From positions 62,383 to 126,382 of the forward strand of contig CAWDDT010000011.1 of the NCBI GenBank assembly GCA_963801165.1: DNA of 64,000 nucleotides. The letters are read 5' to 3'. Shown one piece after another: positions 1 through 11,228 of this stretch. Source of the DNA: an uncultured bacterium. GTDB lineage: Bacteria; Actinomycetota; Acidimicrobiia; Spongiisociales; UBA5794. The first letter of the stretch is position 1. The number at the start of each line of letters is the position of its first letter. The notes beneath the pieces were generated by a model. It searched no databases. It saw nothing but the letters and a program-made list of their open reading frames with translations, and had not been told where the DNA came from. A program made the position numbers and the translations under genes.

Positions 1-126
1 GCCACCATGGCAGAGGTCGACGTCGAGGCTTGAGCCGGCTCAGCCGGGCCCGGCGGAAACCCGGTATCAACCCGACCAGATACGCATCTCTTCTATAGGC
101 TTGTCCAAAGCCGGGAGGAGTGTCCG

Positions 127-1911
127 ATGTGGGATCAGTATCTGGCCGATCGTGGTGATCCGTGGGACTACGACCCGGGCCCGCCCCGTAATCGCAGCTG
201 GCCACGGTTGTTTGCCGACACACCCAACTACCGGGCCATCGGCGTCGACCTGACCGGGAGGGAATCGTTTCGGTGGCATTTCGGCCCGATGTTCTATCGA
301 GGCCGGCTCGGAGACAACGAGGTCAAGGTCCTCGTCGTCGGGCAGGAGGGGGCACAGGACGAGTCGCTCTCGCACCGCTCGTTCACCGGCGGCACCGGCG
401 CCCGCATGCAATATCTGCTCGAGCACATCGGCCTCACCCACTCGTATCTCTTTCTCAACACGTTCGTGTACCCGATCTTCGGCCAATACCACGACTCCTT
501 GCGACCGCTTGCCCAGGACCCGGCATCACCAATAGTCGCCCACCGTCACGAAATTCTCGACTACCTCGTGGCACGGAACGATCTGAGGCTGGTGATTGCG
601 GTTGGCCGCGCCGCCAAGGAGACGATCGCCACGTGGATCAAGTCGCACGGCGGGACGGCGCAACCCGAGAGCCTGCACACCGCACACGCCAATGTGATCG
701 ACCCTCACCTCAAGGCACTCGGCGTTCTCCATCCCGGAGGAGCTACCAAAGGTGGCTCGGTGAGCGCAATCATCGCCGACTTCAAGACGGCAATCCGGCG
801 CATCGAGCGTTGGAACCGCGACGACGCCTCCTGGCTGCCGCCCGATCCGGGAGCAGAGCGGCGCCCGGCGGACGACTATGCGTACAGGTCGGCGCCGATT
901 CCGTTCCGCGACCTGCCCTACGGTGTCGCCTGGCGCCTGGGCCGGGGTGCCACCTCGAGCAACAGGAGCAGCGACCAGCGCTCCATCCAGATCTTCTCGG
1001 CCGACGGCAAGTACAACAACCGGGGAGACAGTCTCTCCTATCTCTCGAATGCCGACGGTTCTGCAGACGGATACAGCCAGGACGCCGGCGACCTCCCGTA
1101 CGAGCCTCCCAAACACGACTACCGCGACTTCGATCGGGGCCCGAGCCGGTCGCTCGCTCAGCTTCTCGCCGGCGGATCGCCCGGTCTTCCCTGGCCCGAT
1201 TTCTCGTCGCTCGGGCTGCACTGCCACCCATCCTTCGGGCTGGGACCGATCTATCGCGGCAAGCTACACCGGCCCTCTGTCGTGGTCCTGGCCGACCAAC
1301 AGTCGTACGACGACCTGTTCACGTGCCGGGCACTTACCGGCGACGGAGGTCAGCATCTGCAGGCATTCCTGCGCGCAGCAGGGTTGACCGAGAACTACGC
1401 CATCTTGCGGGTGCTCCCGGTCGACACGCTCGCCGAGAGCTCCACAACGGTCCGGTCCGCGGTTGACCACCCCACGACGAGAGCTCTCCACGCGGCCATC
1501 GTGGCGCGGCTCGCTCCCACGGTCGTCGTCGTCGCCGGCCCCCAGGCACGGCGCCTCGCCGGTCACCTGTCGCTTGCGGCGCCGATCGTCGAGATGAAGG
1601 CGTCCGGCCAGAGTGGGTATACCGCCGACTGGAGACGGGCGCTGCACGAGCTGGAATCGCTCAGCTACCCCAGGGACCTCGCCCACCCGGCCTTCGACTA
1701 TCAGGGCGAGCGGGAGCAGATCCCACGCCGGGACCTCCCGTTCGGGACGCTCCGCTGGCAAGGCACATCGGGGGACCGGGCGTTGCAGGCACAGCACGGA
1801 GGCAAGCCGTCGTACGACTATTACAAGCTCGTTATGCCCAAATGGGCCTACCAGCTCGTTCCCGAGCCGCTCACGGCCCGGGAACGCCACGCTCTCGACC
1901 CGCTGCGGTGA
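127..1911 (+). CDS. Tandem UDG-fold protein (uracil-DNA glycosylase superfamily-like, two domains)
   Basis: 594-aa ORF with SD-like GGGAGGAG about 7 nt before the ATG. N-terminal half has a family-4-like motif A (VLVVGQEGAQDE...FTGGTGARM), LNTFVYPI and motif-B-like LGVLHPGG. C-terminal half repeats the layout in degenerate form (VVVLADQQSYDD...LTGDGGQHLQ). Both halves are preceded by FGPMFYRGRL / LGPIYRGKL. Confidence 0.6.
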   Translation: MWDQYLADRGDPWDYDPGPPRNRSWPRLFADTPNYRAIGVDLTGRESFRWHFGPMFYRGRLGDNEVKVLVVGQEGAQDESLSHRSFTGGTGARMQYLLEHIGLTHSYLFLNTFVYPIFGQYHDSLRPLAQDPASPIVAHRHEILDYLVARNDLRLVIAVGRAAKETIATWIKSHGGTAQPESLHTAHANVIDPHLKALGVLHPGGATKGGSVSAIIADFKTAIRRIERWNRDDASWLPPDPGAERRPADDYAYRSAPIPFRDLPYGVAWRLGRGATSSNRSSDQRSIQIFSADGKYNNRGDSLSYLSNADGSADGYSQDAGDLPYEPPKHDYRDFDRGPSRSLAQLLAGGSPGLPWPDFSSLGLHCHPSFGLGPIYRGKLHRPSVVVLADQQSYDDLFTCRALTGDGGQHLQAFLRAAGLTENYAILRVLPVDTLAESSTTVRSAVDHPTTRALHAAIVARLAPTVVVVAGPQARRLAGHLSLAAPIVEMKASGQSGYTADWRRALHELESLSYPRDLAHPAFDYQGEREQIPRRDLPFGTLRWQGTSGDRALQAQHGGKPSYDYYKLVMPKWAYQLVPEPLTARERHALDPLR

Positions 1912-1915
1912 CGAC

Positions 1916-4900
1916 ATGGCACCAACCCCGATCGACCAACCGCTGAGCCCCACCTACGTCCTGGACGGCAGGGTGGTGACGATGAACGCCACGTTCGACG
2001 TGATCGACCGGGGCCGGGTCTATGTCGCTGCGGGAGCGATCGTGGCGGTGACCCCGGACGACGCTCCCCCGCCCGACGGCTTCGCAGGCGCGCCGCTCAT
2101 CCGCACCGGAGCAACGATCTACCCGGGGATGATCGAGCTGCACAACCACCTCAGCTACGACGTGCTCCCGCTCTGGCAGGTGCCCCGCCGCTATGGAAAC
2201 CGCGGCAACTGGCGCGACAGTCCGGATAAGAAGAGGCTCATCAGCGGGCCGATGAAGGTGTTGGGCAGCACCGCCGGCGTCATCGAGGCGATCGTCCGCT
2301 ACGTCGAAGCGAAGGCGCTGTTGGCCGGGGCCACGACATCGCAGGGAATCACGCTGATCAACACGGCGATACCCCACCACTACCGGGGGATCGTCCGCAA
2401 CGTCGAACAGACCGAGGACCCCGAGCTGCCCAACGCCAGCACCCGGGTAGGCGACGTGACGGACGCGGTCGCCTTCAAGAAGCGACTGGAGAAGTCGTCC
2501 ACACTGCTTCTGCACCTGGCCGAGGGTGTTGACAACACCGCCCGGGAGCAATTCAAGGCGCTCAAGATCAAGGCCAGAGACTGGGCAATCACCGATGCTC
2601 TCGCCGGCATCCATTGCGCCGGGCTGGTGGGTCGTGACTACGCCACCCTGCGCAGCCGCGGCGGGACAATGGTGTGGTCGCCGCTGTCCAACCTGCTGCT
2701 ATACGGCGGCACTGCTGACATCCAGCGTGCCGTCGACGAAGGCGTTCTGATCGCCCTTGGCTCAGATTGGTCACCGAGCGGGAGCAAAAACCTTCTCGGC
2801 GAGCTGAAGGTCGCCAAACTCGTCAACCATCTGGCCGGCGACCCCCTATCCGCCCGCGACATCGTCGCCATGGCAACCATCAATCCTGCCCGTATTGTCA
2901 AGTGGGACAAGGCGCTCGGGTCGATCGAGCCGGGCAAGCGAGCGGACCTGATCGTGATCGATGACCGGGGCGGCGATCCCTACGACCACATCATCGAGGC
3001 CCGCGAGAGCACGGTAACTCTTGCGGTCATCAACGGGGTGCCCCGGTACGGCCAGCAGCGTTTGATGAAGAGGTTCCCGGGGACAACCGAGTCATTCGAC
3101 CTCGACGGCTCGAAGCGCGCCTTCAACTTCGCACAGGAGACCGCAGACCCCGTCGTCGCAGCCATGTCACTCGAGGAGGCGGCAGGACGACTCGAGGAGG
3201 CGATGAGCCGGGTCCCAGATCTCGCCCGCGCCCTCGCCGACCCGATAGCGGCGCGCACCGCGTTCGGCATCACGGCCGCCGGTCAACCCGGCCGGTGGGT
3301 TCTCGACCTCGACAACGAGGGATCCGACCACCTGGCGCTCGCCCCCGACTCTTTCGCCGAGCGGCTGATCGCCGGGGAGAGCGATGTTCTCGACCAAACC
3401 CTCGGGGGTATCCGGCTCGACCCGCTTTCGATCGTCCAGGACGGCGAGTTCTTCCAGCGCATCTCCAACCAGACGAACCTACCGCCTCTCCTGGTCGAGG
3501 AGCTGCCGAAGTACTACGGGCGGACGGCACCCGCCCCCGATCCAAGCGTGGTGGGGATGACGACGGCCGACACCATACCGGTCCCCGAGCGCGGGCCGGC
3601 AACGGTGGCCGAGCTGAACCGGGCCACCGGACTGTTGTCGCTCGAAGATCGCAAGCTGCTCGTCGACCAGGCGCGGGTGCTGCTGGAGGATGCTTACGTG
3701 CACCTGCAGTTGAAGCGGTCGATGCATGCGGTCGAGCCGATCCAGCGCCTCCGGCTCCTCCGCCACGAGCTGGAGCGGAACACAGAGAGCAGCGTCGAGC
3801 CGGAAGCCCAGTTTCACCGCAAGCTCACCGAGATCTTCACCGACCTACGCGACCTACACACCAACTACCTGCTTCCCTCACCATTCAAGGAACACACCGC
3901 CTTTCTCCCCTTCCTCGCCGAGGAATGCTTCGACCCCGATGGCACGGCGCACTACCTGGTGACGAAGCTGGCTCCCGACTTCAACCATCCGACGTTCACA
4001 CCCGGCGCCGAGCTGCTCTACTGGAACGGGACCCCGATCCGGGCCGCAATCCAGGCCAATGCCGACCGCCAGGCAGGTAGCAACCCGGCCGCTAGTTTCA
4101 GCCGTGGCCTCGATGCCCTCACCATCCGACCCCTCATTCGCTCCCTCCCACCCGACGAGGAATGGGTGGTAATCACCTACCGCGCCGCCGACGGCAGGGA
4201 GCTCGAGCTACGACTCGACTGGAAGGTCTGGGCGCCGGGGGATGCTCCGGGTGTCGATCCCGACGGCGGGGCTTCGATGGACACCGCGGCCACCCTCGGA
4301 TACGACATCCAGACGGACGCGGTCAACCAGGCGCGCAAGATGCTCTACGCCCCGGCGTCCATCAGGGCGGAAACCTCCATCGGTGCGCGTATGGTCGACA
4401 TGGGCGCCGATGTCCTGGCAACGACGATGCCGACCATCTTCCGCGCCAGGGAAGTCACCACACCTGCCGGTACCTTTGGCTATGTCCGGATATTCAGCTT
4501 CAACGTTCCCGACGCCGACGGGTTTGTCGCCGAGTTCGTCCGCCTCGCCGAGCAGCTGCCCGGCTCCGGGCTGATCATCGACGTCCGCAACAACGGGGGC
4601 GGGCTGATCACCGCCGCCGAGCGGCTGCTCCAGGTGCTCACCCCGCAAAGGATCGAGCCCTCGCCCGCGCAATTCGCGACGACGCCGCTCATGCGCAGGT
4701 TGGTCGAAGGACATTCTCCGTCGCCGCTCGACGCCACATTCGACCTGAGCGCCTGGGAACCGTCGATCGATCTCGCCGTGCAGACCGGGGCGGCCTATTC
4801 GACCGCCCACCCGATCACCGAGCCCTCCTCTGCGAACACCATCGGCCAGCGCTACCACGGCCCCGTCGTGCTGATCACAGATGCCCTGTGCTACTCGGCA

Positions 4901-5473
4901 ACCGACATGTTCGCAGCCGGATTCCAGGATCACGACATCGGCTCGGTCGTAGGCGTTGCCGACGCCACGGGAGCCGGTGGCGCCAACGTGTGGACCCACG
5001 AGCTGTTGCGGGCGCTTCTCGCCGCCACCGGTGACAACCCCCTCGCGCCGCTCCCGCACGGCGCCGGGATGCGGGTGGCGGTGCGGAGGACGCTCCGGGT
5101 GGGCGCACAGTCGGGAACACCGGTCGAGGACCTCGGTGTGGTGCCGAATGTGCGGCACAGGATGACCGCACGTGACGTCCTCGAAGACAACCAGGATCTG
5201 ATAGCCACCGCCGCCGGCCGGCTGGCAGGGCAACCGGCATATGTGCTGCAAGGGGACCTTGCAGTGGAAAGTGGTCGCACAACCCTGCGGGTGACGACGG
5301 GCAACGTCGACCGCGTCGACGTTGCATTCGACGACCGCGTGGTCGCCACCTACGACGTAGCAGATGGCACCAAGACCTGGCGACCCACCGGCCATTCACC
5401 GAAACGGATCATACGTCTGACGGGATACGCGGGGGACAGGCTCGTCGCCGCCCGGGTTCTCGAGGTCCCGTAA
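1916..5473 (+). CDS. Fusion protein: metal-dependent amidohydrolase (deaminase/chlorohydrolase-like) + PDZ-containing S41 peptidase domain
   Basis: In-frame ATG at 1916, 4 nt after the upstream stop (MAPTPIDQ...). N-terminal amidohydrolase ligand pattern: ELHNHLS (HxH), LHLAEG, IHCAG, LGSDWSP. C-terminal S41 signatures: LIIDVRNNGGGL, VVLITDALCYSATD, PDZ-like TFTPGAELLYWNGTPI. The 1613-1915 part of the tracked ORF is Arg/Ser/Thr-rich and overlaps the upstream gene, so it was rejected. Confidence 0.7.
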   Translation: MAPTPIDQPLSPTYVLDGRVVTMNATFDVIDRGRVYVAAGAIVAVTPDDAPPPDGFAGAPLIRTGATIYPGMIELHNHLSYDVLPLWQVPRRYGNRGNWRDSPDKKRLISGPMKVLGSTAGVIEAIVRYVEAKALLAGATTSQGITLINTAIPHHYRGIVRNVEQTEDPELPNASTRVGDVTDAVAFKKRLEKSSTLLLHLAEGVDNTAREQFKALKIKARDWAITDALAGIHCAGLVGRDYATLRSRGGTMVWSPLSNLLLYGGTADIQRAVDEGVLIALGSDWSPSGSKNLLGELKVAKLVNHLAGDPLSARDIVAMATINPARIVKWDKALGSIEPGKRADLIVIDDRGGDPYDHIIEARESTVTLAVINGVPRYGQQRLMKRFPGTTESFDLDGSKRAFNFAQETADPVVAAMSLEEAAGRLEEAMSRVPDLARALADPIAARTAFGITAAGQPGRWVLDLDNEGSDHLALAPDSFAERLIAGESDVLDQTLGGIRLDPLSIVQDGEFFQRISNQTNLPPLLVEELPKYYGRTAPAPDPSVVGMTTADTIPVPERGPATVAELNRATGLLSLEDRKLLVDQARVLLEDAYVHLQLKRSMHAVEPIQRLRLLRHELERNTESSVEPEAQFHRKLTEIFTDLRDLHTNYLLPSPFKEHTAFLPFLAEECFDPDGTAHYLVTKLAPDFNHPTFTPGAELLYWNGTPIRAAIQANADRQAGSNPAASFSRGLDALTIRPLIRSLPPDEEWVVITYRAADGRELELRLDWKVWAPGDAPGVDPDGGASMDTAATLGYDIQTDAVNQARKMLYAPASIRAETSIGARMVDMGADVLATTMPTIFRAREVTTPAGTFGYVRIFSFNVPDADGFVAEFVRLAEQLPGSGLIIDVRNNGGGLITAAERLLQVLTPQRIEPSPAQFATTPLMRRLVEGHSPSPLDATFDLSAWEPSIDLAVQTGAAYSTAHPITEPSSANTIGQRYHGPVVLITDALCYSATDMFAAGFQDHDIGSVVGVADATGAGGANVWTHELLRALLAATGDNPLAPLPHGAGMRVAVRRTLRVGAQSGTPVEDLGVVPNVRHRMTARDVLEDNQDLIATAAGRLAGQPAYVLQGDLAVESGRTTLRVTTGNVDRVDVAFDDRVVATYDVADGTKTWRPTGHSPKRIIRLTGYAGDRLVAARVLEVP

Positions 5474-5522
5474 AGACAGACCCGTAAAGACAGACCCGTA
5501 AAGACAGACCCGTAAAGACAGA
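5467..5522. repeat. Perfect 14-bp tandem repeat x4 (CCCGTAAAGACAGA)
   Basis: Four identical head-to-tail copies read directly. The first copy contains the TAA stop of the 1916..5473 CDS. The array lies between convergent genes. Confidence 0.95.
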
Positions 5523-5551
5523 TCGGCAAGCGACTGAGTAGTCGCGAGCGC

Positions 5552-5830
5552 CTATCCCGCCCCGACTGAATCCTTGAACGCGTTTCCCGGGCGAAAGACG
5601 GGCACGGTCCTGGGTGGTATCGGCACGGCGACACCGGTACGTGGATTGCGACCGGTGCGGGCTTGCCGGGCCTTCGGCTCAAACGTGCCAAACCCGCTGA
5701 GTGTCACCGAGCCATCGGCCGCCACCGCGTCGATGATGGCTTCCATCATGGCCTCGATCGTGGCCGAGACCGCAACCTTGGTCTGGCCGGTCCGGGCTGC
5801 TACCTCGTCGATGAGATCCGCCTTGTTCAC
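5552..5830 (-). CDS. hup: HU-family nucleoid-associated DNA-binding protein
   Basis: VNKADLIDEVAARTGQTKVAVSATIEAMMEAIIDAVAADGSVTLSGFGTFEPKARQARTGRNPRTGVAVPIPPRTVPVFRPGNAFK is a full HU/IHF signature. GTG at 5830 gives the canonical N-terminus; the longer tracked ORF adds 20 non-homologous residues. Confidence 0.9.
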   Translation of the reverse strand: MNKADLIDEVAARTGQTKVAVSATIEAMMEAIIDAVAADGSVTLSGFGTFEPKARQARTGRNPRTGVAVPIPPRTVPVFRPGNAFKDSVGAG

Positions 5831-5931
5831 GCACCCGCTCCTGTATGTCTGCCTCGGCAAGACCATACCCAGGCGAACGCCGCCACCCAAGGATGTCGCG
5901 ACCCACCAACCAGGGCTTGCCAGCTATGTGA

Positions 5932-6693
5932 TCAGCCGAGGCTGAAGTAGCGAGGCTCGTCTCCCGGGGCGTTCAGGTACAGCTCGAGGCCGGCGGCGAC
6001 GTCCGCGCTGGCCACCGGCATACAGATGTGCGCCGTGAAACTCTCTCCCGGCAGGGCCTCGAGAACGTCGTAGAGCGAATCGGGCACCACGCCGCAGCCG
6101 GGAATCGACGGGAGATACTGCTTGTCACCGGCGACCACCGCCCACTCGAACACCGGCTCGGCAACGTTGTTGCCGAGGTACGTTCCCTCGATTGTCACCA
6201 GCACGTCCTGGTAGCCGGGCTCCGGCTTGGGGTTGATATCGGCGAAGCCGAGGACGGTGTCGGTCGCATCGAGCTCCACGTTGGTCAGAGCTATGTCCCA
6301 CACGCCGGGATCGGCCTCGATCACCTCGCCGACCGGAACCGGATCGGTCTCCGTCGCCTCCGCTGTGGTACGGGGCAAACGCTCGTCTATTGGAGGGGGC
6401 GGAATCGTGGTGGTGGTAGTAGTAGTGGTGGTAGTGACTTCGATCGTCGTCCCGGTCTCAGGCTGGGCGGCGGTCGTAGTGGTCGTCGCCGCTCCCGCCA
6501 CGGCCGCGCTGGTGGTGGCAACAGTCGACGTGGTGGCACCAGTCGACGGGTTGTCGGCGGTCTCAGCTGCGCCGGCCGCTACCGTCGTGGCAGTCGGCTC
6601 CGAACTCGTCGTCGATCCCCCGCCCACGGCTATCCAGACACCAACAACCGCGACGAGAGCCGCAACAGCGGCCAGAATCCACCCTCGTCTCAC
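5932..6693 (-). CDS. Membrane-anchored/secreted Thr-rich protein with C-terminal beta-rich domain (DUF4352-like guess)
   Basis: N-terminal hydrophobic anchor (WILAAVAALVAVVGVWIAV), long Thr/Ala linker including a 10xThr run, then a globular domain. The GTG start overlaps the TGA of the upstream giant gene (GTGA). Confidence 0.6.
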   Translation of the reverse strand: MRRGWILAAVAALVAVVGVWIAVGGGSTTSSEPTATTVAAGAAETADNPSTGATTSTVATTSAAVAGAATTTTTAAQPETGTTIEVTTTTTTTTTTIPPPPIDERLPRTTAEATETDPVPVGEVIEADPGVWDIALTNVELDATDTVLGFADINPKPEPGYQDVLVTIEGTYLGNNVAEPVFEWAVVAGDKQYLPSIPGCGVVPDSLYDVLEALPGESFTAHICMPVASADVAAGLELYLNAPGDEPRYFSLG

Positions 6694-9600
6694 TGACAGC
6701 CGCCGGCGGCATATCCAACAGAGGCGTCGAAGATCGACCAGATATCAGCATTCCAGTTGAGGACAGACGTGTTGTAGGCAGAAACATGGAGCCGGCACCC
6801 TGCCGCCGTTGAACCATCGGCGAGTAGGGCTCCACTCTGATAGACGAAGCTGGTCGGCAGATCATTGGCAGTGACAACTACGGTCGACTCTCCGCCGGGG
6901 ACGCCAAAAGACCACGTCTTGTTGGAGGTCCCCGCAACCACGTTACCGGTGAAGCCGCCGGCGAGCGGATGGTTGTCGTCGACGATCGCCAACACGCTCG
7001 CCGTCGTCGAGCCATAGTCCGTCCCCGAGACCGGCCCGGTCATGCCCATGTCGTCGAGCAACCACGGCTTGGCCACCCAGACGGGCACCGAGACTCCGGC
7101 ATACATGTCCCGCACCAGATTCGCATTCACAGACGATGAAATCAGCACAAACGACGCACCGACCGCGTCGGCAGCCGTTGCGTTGTTGTCGTCGACAACA
7201 ACAACGGTGTATCCGTCACTCGTCATGCGATCCCGTACCGCGACGTCCCCGGTGGCGAGATTGGTGGCATCGCCGACGATCATCTTGATGATTCCGCTTG
7301 CTGTGTTGTCGACGGTAATCGCCACCGAGTCGGATGCGGTGCGGCTCATGGTGTCTGTAGCCGTCGCCGAGACCGTCACCGGCCCGTCGGCGGCCGTGGT
7401 CGTGTCCCAATCCCACGACCAGCCGTCGGTGCCGTCACTGTCAACGCCGAGAGATGCACCGTCTGCGAAGAACTCGACCTGGGTAACCGTCGGATCGGAA
7501 CCGGTATCGGCGACAACCGCCACCGTATCGTGGAGAGTTGCGCCGGCGGGTGGCGATGTGATCGTCACCTGCGGGCCCTGGTTGTCGACAGTCACAGTCA
7601 CAGATCCGCTTCGAGTATGAGACGCGGTATCGGTGGCGACCGCGGTGACGGTGATCTGCCCGTCTGCACCGCCGGTGGTATCCCAGTCGGCCGACCAGCC
7701 GTCACCGCCGTTAGTGTCGACACCAATCGACGCACCGTCTGCCAGGAACTCGACCTGAGTCACGGCGACGTCGTCTGTGGCGTCGGCGGTCACCGTGACA
7801 ACACCGGACACGGTTGCTCCGTCGGCCGGTGCCGTCACCGCTGCGGTGGGAGGATTGTCGACCGGTGGCGCCACGCAGCCGTTGGCCGCGTAGGCCACCG
7901 TGTTATCGAACAACGCCCAACCGTCCGTCGAGAACCTCACGGGAGCATCGGCGAATATCGAATAGTGGAGCCGGCATCCCGCCGCGGTGGACCCGTCGGC
8001 GAGCGTGGCTCCCGCGGAGTAGACGAACAACGTGGGCTTGCCGGCGGTGGTCCCCACCACATCGGCACCCGGGCCGGGTACGCCAAAGGACATGGTCCGG
8101 TTCCAGGTGGTCACCGTCACATCTCCCGTAAGGCCTGCCGCAAGGGGGTGACCGGGTTCGGTGATCGTCACAGTATCGTGGAGAAGCGTTCCGTAGTCGG
8201 TGCCGGCAGCTGTGCCGGTCATTCCCATGTCGTCGAGCAGGTACGGCTTGGCGACCCATACCGGTTCGGGCACGTCGGCCAGTTTGTCCTTGATGAGGTT
8301 GGCATTGACTGTGGACGACAGGATGACAAGCGCGGACCCCGTAACCGAGCCCGCCGTCACAACACCGTCATCGACCTCGCTCACGGTGTAGCCGAGACCT
8401 TCGAGCTCCGTCACCATGGCGTTTTCCCCGGCCTGGAGCGAAGTCGGGTCGGCGACGACAACGACGATCACGCCGGCAGAGTTGTTGCTAACGGTCACGG
8501 CCGCTTGATCCGACGACGTCCTACCGAACGAGTCGGTGCCAACGACACTCACCGTTGCAGGCCCGTCCGATGCCGATGTGGTATCCCACGTGATCGACCA
8601 GCCGTCGCCTCCATTGTTATCAACGCCGATAGAAGCGCCGTCGACGAAGAACTCGGCCTGCGCCACCCCGACATCGTCGGTGACGGTTGCGGAAACGGAC
8701 AAGGACCCCGAGATCGTCGCCCCGTCCACCGGGACGGTGAGAGTCGTCGTCGGCCCGAGGTTGTCGACAGTGATCGAAACGGAGTCCGTAGCTTGCTGAC
8801 CGCCCCCGTCGAATGCAGTGGCCGCGACCGTGGCATTGCCGTCGGCGGCCGTCGTGCTGTCCCAGTCAACGGACCAGCCGTCACTCCCGTCGTTGTCCAC
8901 ACCGACCTGGGCGCCATCGACGGTGAACTCGACACGGTCCACAGCGATGTCATCCGAAGCATCGGCGCTGAACGTCACGTTTCCTGCGACCGCGTCGCCG
9001 TCACCCGGTGTCGTCAGGGAAACGGTCGGCTGTGAGTCGATCGACAGGAGGAAGATGTCCGTGTTCGCCCAGTCCCGGCCGTCGCCCGCCGCAGGGCCGC
9101 TGATCAGGGTCTGCGTGCCCGACACCGGGATGTCACCGGAAAGATCGATCGAGTACATATTGCCGCTAGATGTCGTGTAGTAGAGCTTTCCGTCGGCTGC
9201 GGTCATACCACGCGTGCTGGACCAGTCGAGACCGTCGCCGTCGCCGCTCACCACGTACTCCCTGTTGCCGACGATGCCGGACTCCAGAGAGAAGTACCGG
9301 TAGCGCAGCCGGGAGCTCCCGCTCAAGGTGTAGTACAGCTTGCCCTGCGACCAGGCGGCCGACGTTGCGCCGCTCCAGTCGAACCAGGACGGCTCGGTGC
9401 GTGCCGTCCCCATCGTGACACCATCGAACGGCCTCGACTGAAGGGCACCGCTGGTGTCCGTCCAGTACAGCCTGCCCGCCTGATAGAACGCCCCGTTGAC
9501 CTGGGCCCAGTCGATTACGTTGCCGGGGACCGTGGCGGGAGTGCCCGCCGAAATGCCATCAAACGTCTCGACGGTGAGCGTGCTCCCGTCGCCGGCAAAC

Positions 9601-10931
9601 AGGTCTGTCGGCAATGTCGGCGCCGTAGGCACAGGTACAGAGGAGCCTCCGGTGAGGGGGAACTGAGCCAGCTTGGGGTGGTACTCGCCCGCGGTGAAGT
9701 CGGTGTCGGAGCCAACGTAGAGCCCGCGGTTGGAGAGGTGCAGATCCCAGACCGCAACCCCGCGGTCCTTGCCGGGGTTCCACGACAGCGGCACGCCGTT
9801 GATGGGATCGAGCGCGCCGATCCCGGGGCGGGACACCGCCCCGGCCGCGGCGCTGTCGAACCCCAGGTAGTTGTTCAGCCACCGCTGGTGGCCCCCGACG
9901 TAAACGCTGACGTCGGAAATGGCAACGGCTGTGAGAGTGTCGCCCCCGGTCCAATCGACCCAGGTCTCGGCGACGGCCGCACCTCGCTGACCGCTCTCCC
10001 ACCTGGACGCTGAATCACACAACGACGGGTAGTGGGGACCACCGGTCGTGACGATCACGAAATAGGCACTGTCGGGTGAGTACTCGACATCACGAACGTA
10101 GGTCCAGAAACTCGACGAGCAGGCGGCACCGAACGCGTCAGTCGACCAATTGGCGAGCTGGGCCGTCGGCCCGCTCAGATCGATCACCGCCACCTGGGAA
10201 CGAGGTTGGTTGTCCACCTCGGAGAAATTGCCGACGATGGTCATCTCGGAGCCGTCCGGGCTGACCGCCAGCTCCGCCACCCAGTCGACGCTCACCCTGG
10301 GGGCGGTCGTACCGATCGTGAACGAGGGGTCAACGACGCCTGTAGTCGCATCGACGGCGGCGAGCCGGGCCCGGGGCACGCCGTTTACAGACCAGATGTC
10401 ACCGCCCATGTACAGGGTGTTGCCACTGACCTCGATATCACGAACCCTGCCCGCGGTGGTGGCGTTGAACCCGGCCACCCGCTGGCCCGTGCCGACGCTC
10501 AGCTTGGTCAGACCGAAATTCGACACCCCGTTCACGTTTGCGAACACGCCACCGACAAACACCGAGGTCCCGTCCGGAGCTGGTGCGAGCGTCTCGACCT
10601 CGCCGTCGAGCTGGGGAACGAAGTTGGTATCGATCTGACCGGTCACCGGGTCGTAGGCGAAGATGTAGTTGCGGGTCAGGTCTGCCGGGACACCGACGTT
10701 GCGTACGGTGTGGAAGGTGCCACCGACGATGACCCGGTCGCCGACGGTCACGATGGCGGTGACGTGGCCATCCATCACGTAAGGAGTGTTGTCGACCGGG
10801 TCGGCGGATACGACGATCCCCTGGTTCAGATGACTGGCCTCGACCGGGGCGACACCGATAACGCCGAATACCGTCAACGCCGTCAGCAACGCCGTAGCGA
10901 GCGCGACTGCCCTACCGCCTCTGGATGTCAT
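6690..10931 (-). CDS. Giant secreted protein: beta-propeller-like N-terminal region + repeated Ig-like domains + duplicated Cys-pair domain
   Basis: ATG at 10931 with GGAG 8 nt upstream and a signal-like MTSRGGRAVALATALLTALTVFGVIGVAPVEA. Ig-like repeats (VTVTADATDDVAVTQVEFLADGASIGVDTNGGDGWS) occur four times. A roughly 385-aa module is duplicated (DNA about 7878-9029 and 6693-7856). Confidence 0.8.
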   Translation of the reverse strand: MTSRGGRAVALATALLTALTVFGVIGVAPVEASHLNQGIVVSADPVDNTPYVMDGHVTAIVTVGDRVIVGGTFHTVRNVGVPADLTRNYIFAYDPVTGQIDTNFVPQLDGEVETLAPAPDGTSVFVGGVFANVNGVSNFGLTKLSVGTGQRVAGFNATTAGRVRDIEVSGNTLYMGGDIWSVNGVPRARLAAVDATTGVVDPSFTIGTTAPRVSVDWVAELAVSPDGSEMTIVGNFSEVDNQPRSQVAVIDLSGPTAQLANWSTDAFGAACSSSFWTYVRDVEYSPDSAYFVIVTTGGPHYPSLCDSASRWESGQRGAAVAETWVDWTGGDTLTAVAISDVSVYVGGHQRWLNNYLGFDSAAAGAVSRPGIGALDPINGVPLSWNPGKDRGVAVWDLHLSNRGLYVGSDTDFTAGEYHPKLAQFPLTGGSSVPVPTAPTLPTDLFAGDGSTLTVETFDGISAGTPATVPGNVIDWAQVNGAFYQAGRLYWTDTSGALQSRPFDGVTMGTARTEPSWFDWSGATSAAWSQGKLYYTLSGSSRLRYRYFSLESGIVGNREYVVSGDGDGLDWSSTRGMTAADGKLYYTTSSGNMYSIDLSGDIPVSGTQTLISGPAAGDGRDWANTDIFLLSIDSQPTVSLTTPGDGDAVAGNVTFSADASDDIAVDRVEFTVDGAQVGVDNDGSDGWSVDWDSTTAADGNATVAATAFDGGGQQATDSVSITVDNLGPTTTLTVPVDGATISGSLSVSATVTDDVGVAQAEFFVDGASIGVDNNGGDGWSITWDTTSASDGPATVSVVGTDSFGRTSSDQAAVTVSNNSAGVIVVVVADPTSLQAGENAMVTELEGLGYTVSEVDDGVVTAGSVTGSALVILSSTVNANLIKDKLADVPEPVWVAKPYLLDDMGMTGTAAGTDYGTLLHDTVTITEPGHPLAAGLTGDVTVTTWNRTMSFGVPGPGADVVGTTAGKPTLFVYSAGATLADGSTAAGCRLHYSIFADAPVRFSTDGWALFDNTVAYAANGCVAPPVDNPPTAAVTAPADGATVSGVVTVTADATDDVAVTQVEFLADGASIGVDTNGGDGWSADWDTTGGADGQITVTAVATDTASHTRSGSVTVTVDNQGPQVTITSPPAGATLHDTVAVVADTGSDPTVTQVEFFADGASLGVDSDGTDGWSWDWDTTTAADGPVTVSATATDTMSRTASDSVAITVDNTASGIIKMIVGDATNLATGDVAVRDRMTSDGYTVVVVDDNNATAADAVGASFVLISSSVNANLVRDMYAGVSVPVWVAKPWLLDDMGMTGPVSGTDYGSTTASVLAIVDDNHPLAGGFTGNVVAGTSNKTWSFGVPGGESTVVVTANDLPTSFVYQSGALLADGSTAAGCRLHVSAYNTSVLNWNADIWSIFDASVGYAAGGCQ

Positions 10932-11228
10932 AGAAATCTCCGTACCCCTTCTACCCCAACAAGCCTGGACCGACCGTAGCACCGGGCGCAACGAGCGTCA
11001 CACGTCTACCCCAAAACGGGTGATACTGCTGGTCAAACCAAACACACCAGCTTATGGTGCCGACGCCAACGAGTGTTGAGCTGGCTCGGAGCGGGCTATG
11101 GAATGGCATTCCGAAACCTGCTCCGACGGCTTTTCAGGGGGTCGGGAACCCGTGGGCACGGGTTTCTGGTCGTGGTTGGGGGTAGCGCCTTGCGCTCAGG
11201 TAGGAACACGTAACCAGGAGAAGCTGAA

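Follow-up and report, generated by a model that had tools for sequence, protein, structure and literature searches.

Why should a gene for a DNA-glycosylase-like protein and a gene for an amidohydrolase fused to a protease lie almost end to end in the genome of an uncultured Acidimicrobiia bacterium (GTDB lineage UBA5794)? This question is raised by two long open reading frames, ORF1 and ORF2, located near the start of a 64,000-nucleotide stretch of contig CAWDDT010000011.1 (assembly GCA_963801165.1, positions 62,383 to 126,382), which we call the window. The initial annotation, made from the letters of the window, regarded the pair as a candidate uncharacterised system. We find that the pair is a cytoplasmic, tandem-duplicated version of a widespread, undescribed operon. 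In the searchable literature we found no paper connecting a uracil-DNA glycosylase (UDG) with an amidohydrolase or with an S41 peptidase, and thus the partnership itself is indeed undescribed, whereas its glycosylase belongs to a known family, that of BdiUng (PMC5449639). What is new here is the near-obligate partnership of a BdiUng-type glycosylase with an aminohydrolase, to which a protease may be added. The elements in question are the following (the grounds for each assignment are given in brackets):

113..120, forward strand: gggaggag, a Shine-Dalgarno-like sequence 7 nt 5' of the ORF1 ATG (direct sequence reading)
127..1911, forward strand: ORF1 ("UDG2"), a 594-residue, tandem-duplicated BdiUng-type protein of the UDG superfamily (ORF call, Pfam, PDB, hhalign, AlphaFold, Foldseek)
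1916..5473, forward strand: ORF2, a 1185-residue amidohydrolase-S41 fusion (ORF call, Pfam, NCBIfam, structure matches)

ORF1 starts with ATG and stops with TGA at 1909-1911, and the ATG of ORF2 follows at 1916, which confirms the gap of 4 nt between them (1911 versus 1916). The GC content of the pair is that of its surroundings. No signal peptide, transmembrane-like segment or hydrophobic N-terminus was found in ORF1 or ORF2 by hydropathy analysis, the top-scoring segments being internal strands of the fold; this agrees with what had been noted from the sequence and supports a cytoplasmic location. A 2.84-Mb ENA contig (L001; L-numbers are our locus labels) carries the pair in the same gene order at 96-98% protein identity, and a 5.8-kb JGI metagenome contig (Ga0307417_10004773, L152) encodes proteins 100% identical to ORF1 and to the start of ORF2.

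ORF1 is a member of the BdiUng-like UDG family. Its closest solved relative is Blr0248/BdiUng (PDB 5gn2, sequence match E 9e-20), and alignment by hhalign with the BdiUng family, represented by a profile built from 23 sequences, gave a probability of 99.7% (E 3e-26). Pfam detects a UDG domain at residues 62-173 (E 1e-9), and NCBIfam gives weak family-4/UdgX matches. In the AlphaFold model (pLDDT 88.5, pTM 0.90) one order of strands and helices appears twice, and Foldseek with this model returned 5gn2 at the top (E 4e-13, TMt 0.72), followed by family 4, UdgX and SMUG1. A BLASTP comparison of the N-terminal half of ORF1 with its C-terminal half gave a match of 24% identity across about 260 residues (E 4e-10), so that the proposal of two UDG-fold domains in this protein is correct. 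The protein can be divided into three parts:

244..831, forward strand: ORF1 module 1 (residues ~40-235), a catalytically equipped UDG module (hhalign; invariance in 52 homologues)
832..1146, forward strand: inter-module segment (residues ~236-340), including the part that corresponds to the C-terminal dimerisation hairpin of BdiUng (alignment, model, hhalign, PMC5449639)
1147..1908, forward strand: ORF1 module 2 (residues ~341-594), a UDG fold without catalytic residues (half-versus-half alignment, model, Pfam in relatives)

Module 1 shares with BdiUng its fold, an equivalent motif A loop, the asparagine and the His-Pro of motif B: by hhalign, E74, N111 and H202-P203 correspond to D57, N94 and H168-P169 of BdiUng, and all four are invariant in 52 homologues. 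The motifs listed in the initial annotation were all found in the two proteins; in ORF1 these are GQEGAQDE at residue 72, FTGGTG at 86 and LHPGG at 201, with an altered counterpart, ADQQSYDD, at 389. A difference lies in the pocket, where M92 and L69 of BdiUng are replaced by phenylalanine. The inter-module segment has conserved motifs of its own (IPFRDLPYG..WRLGRG.TSSNR, SIQ.FS and DLPYEPP).

Module 2 had been described as the degenerate one of the two domains. It has indeed lost the catalytic residues (Q391 stands in place of E74 and R428 in place of N111, and the motif B histidine is gone), but it is not a decayed domain. It is basic (pI 9.1), and Pfam UDG matches in ORF1 relatives map to the region homologous to it. 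A separate set of residues is invariant here (D390, R401, A402, G405, G408, Q409, Q412, Y424 and P431), and module 2 is thus a non-catalytic domain under strong constraint. BdiUng, a protein of 272 residues, is a homodimer formed via its C-terminal beta hairpin (PMC5449639), whereas ORF1, with 594 residues, is a tandem duplication with catalytic residues in one module only. A hairpin-like segment is nevertheless kept in both modules, and the pTM of 0.90 of the AlphaFold model suggests a fixed arrangement; ORF1 can therefore be read as a covalently linked pseudo-dimer that would take the place of the BdiUng homodimer.

ORF2 consists of four parts:

1916..3115, forward strand: amidohydrolase domain (residues 1-400; Pfam, NCBIfam, PDB, Foldseek, invariance)
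3116..3655, forward strand: helical, acidic middle region without a Pfam family (residues 401-580; model, alignments)
3656..5215, forward strand: CPAF-like S41 protease with a PDZ domain (residues 581-1100; Pfam, NCBIfam CPAF E 1e-16, Foldseek)
5216..5470, forward strand: C-terminal beta-rich, basic domain (pI 9.4) without a family match (residues 1101-1185; model, composition)

Pfam assigns Amidohydro_1 (E 8e-22), Amidohydro_3 and Peptidase_S41 (E 3.5e-18) to this protein, and NCBIfam adds many sub-threshold deaminase/chlorohydrolase models along with CPAF. The amidohydrolase motifs are LHNHL at residue 75, LHLAEG at 199, IHCAG at 232 and GSDWSP at 282; they supply a metal site (HxH, H76/H78; HxxE, H200/E203; H233; D284) that is invariant in 47 homologues. 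We take the HxH to lie on strand 1, the histidine of HxxE, with the catalytic glutamate, on strand 5, the following histidine on strand 6 and the aspartate on strand 8. The structural and PDB neighbours of the domain are AtzA, MTA/SAH and adenosine deaminases, isocytosine deaminase, TrzN and guanine deaminase. With the nucleobase and triazine aminohydrolases compared (guanine deaminase, 8-oxoguanine/isocytosine deaminase, MTA/SAH deaminase, AtzA and TrzN) it shares the TIM barrel and the HxH/HxxE/His/Asp site, with Foldseek E values from 1e-13 to 3e-17. The domain is thus an amidohydrolase of the mononuclear deaminase type with its metal site intact, of the kind seen in nucleobase deaminases. 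It is not, however, any of the named enzymes: sequence matches to them are confined to the domain's C-terminal half and score 60-74 bits versus equivalog cut-offs of 350-540, the HxH is followed by long inserts specific to the family, and the domain is fused to a protease and always has a glycosylase partner. No named NCBIfam equivalog was reached, the best scores being 62-74 bits versus cut-offs of 375-540 among models that included guanine deaminase, 8-oxoguanine deaminase, 5'-deoxyadenosine deaminase and TRZ/ATZ hydrolase.

The first part of the middle region recurs at the C-terminus of stand-alone amidohydrolase partners, that of Bradyrhizobium aligning up to ORF2 residue 477. The C-terminal ~600 residues match CPAF (CT858, PDB 3dor) in structure over its full length, in about 580 aligned columns and including the PDZ insert (Foldseek E 1e-21, TMt 0.64); the PDZ domain, PF17816, is also given by precomputed domain annotation. 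The catalytic H105 and S499 of CPAF align with H648 and S994 of ORF2, both invariant, and an oxyanion motif, RNNGGG, is found at residue 891. The third triad residue of CPAF is E558; E1071/D1072 of ORF2 are invariant and lie beyond the stretch aligned to CPAF. S41 peptidases of the CtpA/Prc type use a Ser-Lys dyad with the lysine in a TxGKG motif. This lysine is absent from ORF2, where residues 1018-1024 read TGAGGAN. The likeness to CPAF has its limits: identity is ~17%, the NCBIfam CPAF score is 61 bits versus a cut-off of 250, and CPAF is secreted into the host, while the S41 part of ORF2 is cytoplasmic, fused to an amidohydrolase and followed by an extra beta domain. Nevertheless, the predicted fusion of an amidohydrolase/deaminase fold with a PDZ/S41 module holds for both halves.

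Does this pair occur elsewhere? Hundreds of full-length homologues exist for ORF1 and hundreds for ORF2. In a GTDB collection with one genome per species, relatives of ORF1 are encoded in 309 stretches, and we counted linkage by tblastn within the best 80 of these loci, all from metagenome-assembled genomes (MAGs). These 80 loci span more than 10 phyla and reach far beyond Actinomycetota (Acidimicrobiia and other classes), with members in Chloroflexota, Acidobacteriota, Gemmatimonadota, Gammaproteobacteria, Syntrophales, Bacteroidota and Ignavibacteriales. An amidohydrolase homologue is present in 77/80 loci, mostly directly downstream on the same strand, although in L049 the match, a lipoprotein at a distance of 2 kb, is perhaps not an orthologue. 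In 24 loci the amidohydrolase and S41 form one fused protein; in 38 the two are separate genes, often overlapping (in long-read Chloroflexia MAGs, frameshift artefacts may lie behind some of these "split" calls); in 15 an amidohydrolase was found with no S41 match, a contig end cutting four of them; and the remaining three have neither. The linkage of glycosylase and amidohydrolase is far above chance, very strong and ancient. The two-gene unit proposed for the window therefore needs to be redrawn: the conserved core is glycosylase plus amidohydrolase, and S41, present in 62/80 loci, is an optional third part.

An assembly chimera, which had been named as a possible source of the ORF2 fusion, was rejected, because the amidohydrolase-S41 fusion is carried by more than 760 protein clusters and by 24 species loci, and other genomes split its halves into overlapping genes. 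All-versus-all clustering of the flanking ORFs revealed no other conserved neighbour beyond lineage-level synteny, and the annotated neighbourhoods of the pair consist of ordinary, varied genes. Of the three proteins the glycosylase is by far the best conserved: when the window is compared with Ilumatobacteraceae, its identity is 61-64%, while that of the amidohydrolase is 32-37% and that of S41 36-41% (window versus L011-L035 and L168). It also seems that glycosylase lineages have swapped two subtypes of the amidohydrolase. As a separate observation, an Acidimicrobiales genome has a 1119-residue protein without a Pfam family and a 49-residue ORF directly upstream of its glycosylase gene (L002 6480-9988).

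The same operon is found with the single-domain glycosylases. A search with the BdiUng sequence returned more than 3100 clusters of ~272-residue single-domain proteins, and in Bradyrhizobium the gene is stable on the chromosome (a cluster of 237 sequences). BdiUng has a crystal structure, excises uracil, 5-hydroxymethyluracil (5hmU) and xanthine in vitro with a preference for single-stranded DNA, and has a pocket that is wide at C5 and excludes normal bases (PMC5449639); the paper that characterised it makes no mention of an amidohydrolase neighbour. Yet an amidohydrolase gene (518-551 residues) lies directly downstream in all five single-domain loci examined (Bradyrhizobium japonicum, Nitrosospira sp. 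NpAV, a Burkholderiales MAG, a Terriglobia MAG and one further genome). In B. japonicum the two genes overlap, and the amidohydrolase shares 44% identity with the ORF2 domain across 483 residues. An S41 gene accompanies the pair in Nitrosospira alone (1/5), its product being 41% identical to the S41 part of ORF2 over 600 residues.

Several details of these loci deserve separate mention. Next after the Nitrosospira triad come alkylation repair genes of the AlkA-like and Ogt/Ada-like kinds, encoded on the opposite strand (L168 9440-10822), and the Bradyrhizobium locus is surrounded by amidase, MFS, aldo-keto reductase and LysR genes. Proteases of the families C14 (caspase-like), M48, C11 and S41 were seen near single-domain pairs in one locus each (L169 3061-4908; L170 3271-4653; L171 9457-10806; L168 7412-9349), which could be due to chance or could reflect a swappable protease partner. 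In L167, about 70-100 nt upstream of position 5001, a tandem 14-nt repeat, CAAGATTGTGCCAT x2, precedes the Bradyrhizobium BdiUng orthologue and may be a regulator site.

Distant relatives of ORF1 (27-47% identity) bear signal peptides or lipoboxes and form an exported clade. This exported double-UDG set comprises L172 (P0287), P0291 (protein only), L097, L098, L130, L131, L147 and L087-L104. One of its members is fused to four ComEA-like HHH_3 domains and another to a lamin-tail domain (LTD), while in ten more distant ORF1 relatives scanned for fused domains nothing but UDG was found. An amidohydrolase orthologue is nearby in 15 of the clade's 23 metagenomic loci, and the two such amidohydrolases that we read both have the family motifs and a signal peptide. 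The existence of exported pairs shows that the glycosylase-amidohydrolase partnership is independent of compartment. S41, on the other hand, is absent from this clade. In five loci without an amidohydrolase a secreted EEP nuclease takes its place, and a lipoprotein EEP nuclease is also found near the helix-hairpin-helix (HhH)-fused member. A MutY gene beside the L090 locus was considered and judged to be an ordinary cytoplasmic housekeeping gene.

HHH_3 (ComEA-like) and LTD domains are familiar from extracellular nucleases, those of the ExeM/NucH type combining LTD or HhH domains with an EEP domain. The exported UDG2 relatives have these accessory DNA-binding domains in common with them and adjoin secreted EEP nucleases, but the likeness is limited to these distant relatives, as the window proteins have neither a signal peptide nor such domains. 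Because of the HhH and LTD fusions and the EEP neighbours, DNA is likely to be the ligand of the double-UDG family and its substrate. We know of no precedent for a secreted DNA-glycosylase-like protein.

What, then, might the operon do? The explanation that we favour, though only tentatively, is that base excision from single-stranded DNA is coupled to hydrolysis of the exocyclic C-N bond of the base, with S41 as an accessory. Module 1 of ORF1 would flip out and excise a damaged or modified base of the oxo type where the DNA is single-stranded or unpaired, as judged from BdiUng, and module 2 would be a non-catalytic stand-in for the second BdiUng subunit, helping to hold the DNA. The ORF2 amidohydrolase would then act on this base moiety by hydrolysing an exocyclic C-N (or C-X) bond, most probably once the free base or base adduct has been released, leading to its disposal or salvage. 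The fused S41, an optional accessory, may strip the substrate of bound or attached protein or peptide. We place excision before hydrolysis because all characterised relatives of the amidohydrolase that we know of act on small molecules, and because in some exported-clade loci UDG2 occurs without an amidohydrolase.

A number of facts weigh against this explanation. The only measured activity in the family is that of BdiUng, and as a UDG this enzyme is very weak (16 pmol versus 4 fmol of EcoUng) and did not rescue an E. coli ung mutator (PMC5449639), so that its true substrate may be a different one. In ORF1 the catalytic aspartate of motif A (D57 in the GQDPA of BdiUng) is a glutamate (E74 in GQEGA, where proline is also changed to glycine), even if the former change is conservative. 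The known BdiUng products, uracil, 5hmU and xanthine, have no amino group for a deaminase to act on, and a downstream amidohydrolase would therefore need a different excised base. Upstream of six loci, a crude pattern search found no SOS-type or PafBC-type boxes. Finally, the model leaves unexplained both the protease-amidohydrolase fusion and the export of glycosylase and amidohydrolase together in one clade.

The fusion would find a reason if the order of events were reversed. In such a scheme of adduct or cross-link repair, S41 would trim a protein cross-linked to a base and the amidohydrolase would act first, on DNA, cutting the exocyclic C-N bond by deamination or alkylaminohydrolase chemistry like that of AtzB/AtzC; NH3 or a peptide would be released, uracil, xanthine or hypoxanthine would be left in the DNA, and the glycosylase would excise this base for base-excision repair. 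The idea is chemically attractive and would also account for the near-obligate coupling. Deamination products are precisely what BdiUng has been verified to excise, the readers of lactam bases (N111 and H202) are invariant, matches of the amidohydrolase include N-ethylammeline chlorohydrolase and a PDB chain with the name "hydroxydechloroatrazine ethylaminohydrolase", the alkylation repair genes AlkA and Ogt/Ada adjoin the Nitrosospira triad, and a weakly SprT-like gene lies near one secreted member. We still consider it unlikely, as S41 is missing from at least 11 loci with room for it and from 4/5 single-domain loci, an exported clade cannot repair the genome, the six upstream regions gave no SOS boxes in the same crude search, and we know of no deaminase of the amidohydrolase superfamily that acts on a polynucleotide. 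Its boldest form, in which BdiUng-type "uracil" glycosylases would not serve uracil repair at all but would be one arm of an undescribed three-enzyme pathway that clears single-stranded DNA of bulky N-linked base adducts or DNA-protein cross-links, with the exported pair working on extracellular DNA, seems to us slightly less probable again; if it is true, no enzyme with the amidohydrolase fold was previously known to act on DNA. The exported clade, with its lipoprotein UDG2 and secreted amidohydrolase orthologues, HHH_3 and LTD domains and adjoining secreted EEP nucleases, speaks for DNA scavenging, in which the glycosylase would strip single-stranded DNA, extracellular or imported, of its bases, the aminohydrolase would deaminate these, giving ammonia and oxo-bases that can be imported or used, and the protease would degrade the accompanying proteins. 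The surroundings of the Bradyrhizobium locus fit this as well. However, BdiUng excludes normal bases (PMC5449639), the invariant pocket residues are of the lesion type and the window version is cytoplasmic. No glycosylase route to nutrients is known to us either, and we rate scavenging about as improbable as repair of adducts.

A defence-type role, suggested in the initial annotation, would be the restriction of phage DNA with modified bases (such as 5-substituted uracils), the amidohydrolase and protease serving as downstream effector or clean-up. The patchy distribution, the 55-65% identity across phyla, the varied genomic context and the lineage-dependent protease family near the pair are what one might expect of such a system, and the pocket of BdiUng is wide at C5 and 5hmU is excised (PMC5449639). 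Nevertheless, the pair matches no known defence system, as was supposed: PADLOC-DB v2 gave no family for ORF1 or ORF2 at E <= 1, and PHROGs gave no matches. Homologues of ORF1 or BdiUng were found neither in the 72,556 plasmids of PLSDB nor in 50,697 GenBank phages, IMG/VR contains no relative of the ORF1 family, and ten annotated neighbourhoods held no defence genes. Together with the stable chromosomal position of the gene in Bradyrhizobium and the strong conservation of the three proteins, these results leave the defence proposal unsupported, and we consider it quite improbable. Slightly less probable still is the second idea of the initial annotation, that the true substrate is not DNA but a small nucleobase-peptide or peptidyl-nucleoside compound that is detoxified or catabolised. 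Three hydrolases, two of them fused, for N-glycosidic, amino-heteroaromatic and peptide bonds would suit such a molecule, and the activity of BdiUng on DNA is weak; however, relatives are fused to DNA-binding domains and neighboured by nucleases, S41 is optional, and no biosynthetic or transporter genes are conserved nearby.

As for the rest of the window, a scan of positions 1-6000 for promoters and terminators gave no signal over shuffle expectation, and neither tRNA genes (tRNA scan) nor Rfam families at the gathering threshold were found in the whole 64 kb. Three genes on the reverse strand follow the pair:

5552-5830, reverse strand: HU-like gene, convergent with ORF2
5932-6693, reverse strand: 253-residue Thr-rich protein with a hydrophobic stretch at the N-terminus, after the HU-like gene
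6690-10991, reverse strand: 1433-residue secreted protein with Big_7-type repeats and internally duplicated halves, overlapping the gene of the 253-residue protein

Base excision coupled to hydrolysis of the base thus remains our preferred, if tentative, explanation of the operon. The near-constant pairing of this glycosylase with a hydrolase, often joined by a CPAF-like protease, in more than 10 phyla and in both compartments, implies the existence of a dedicated pathway for base processing that has so far been overlooked, and this can be tested in cultured Bradyrhizobium and Nitrosospira. The exported glycosylase-like lipoproteins with HhH or LTD domains would, in turn, be new to the biology of extracellular DNA.

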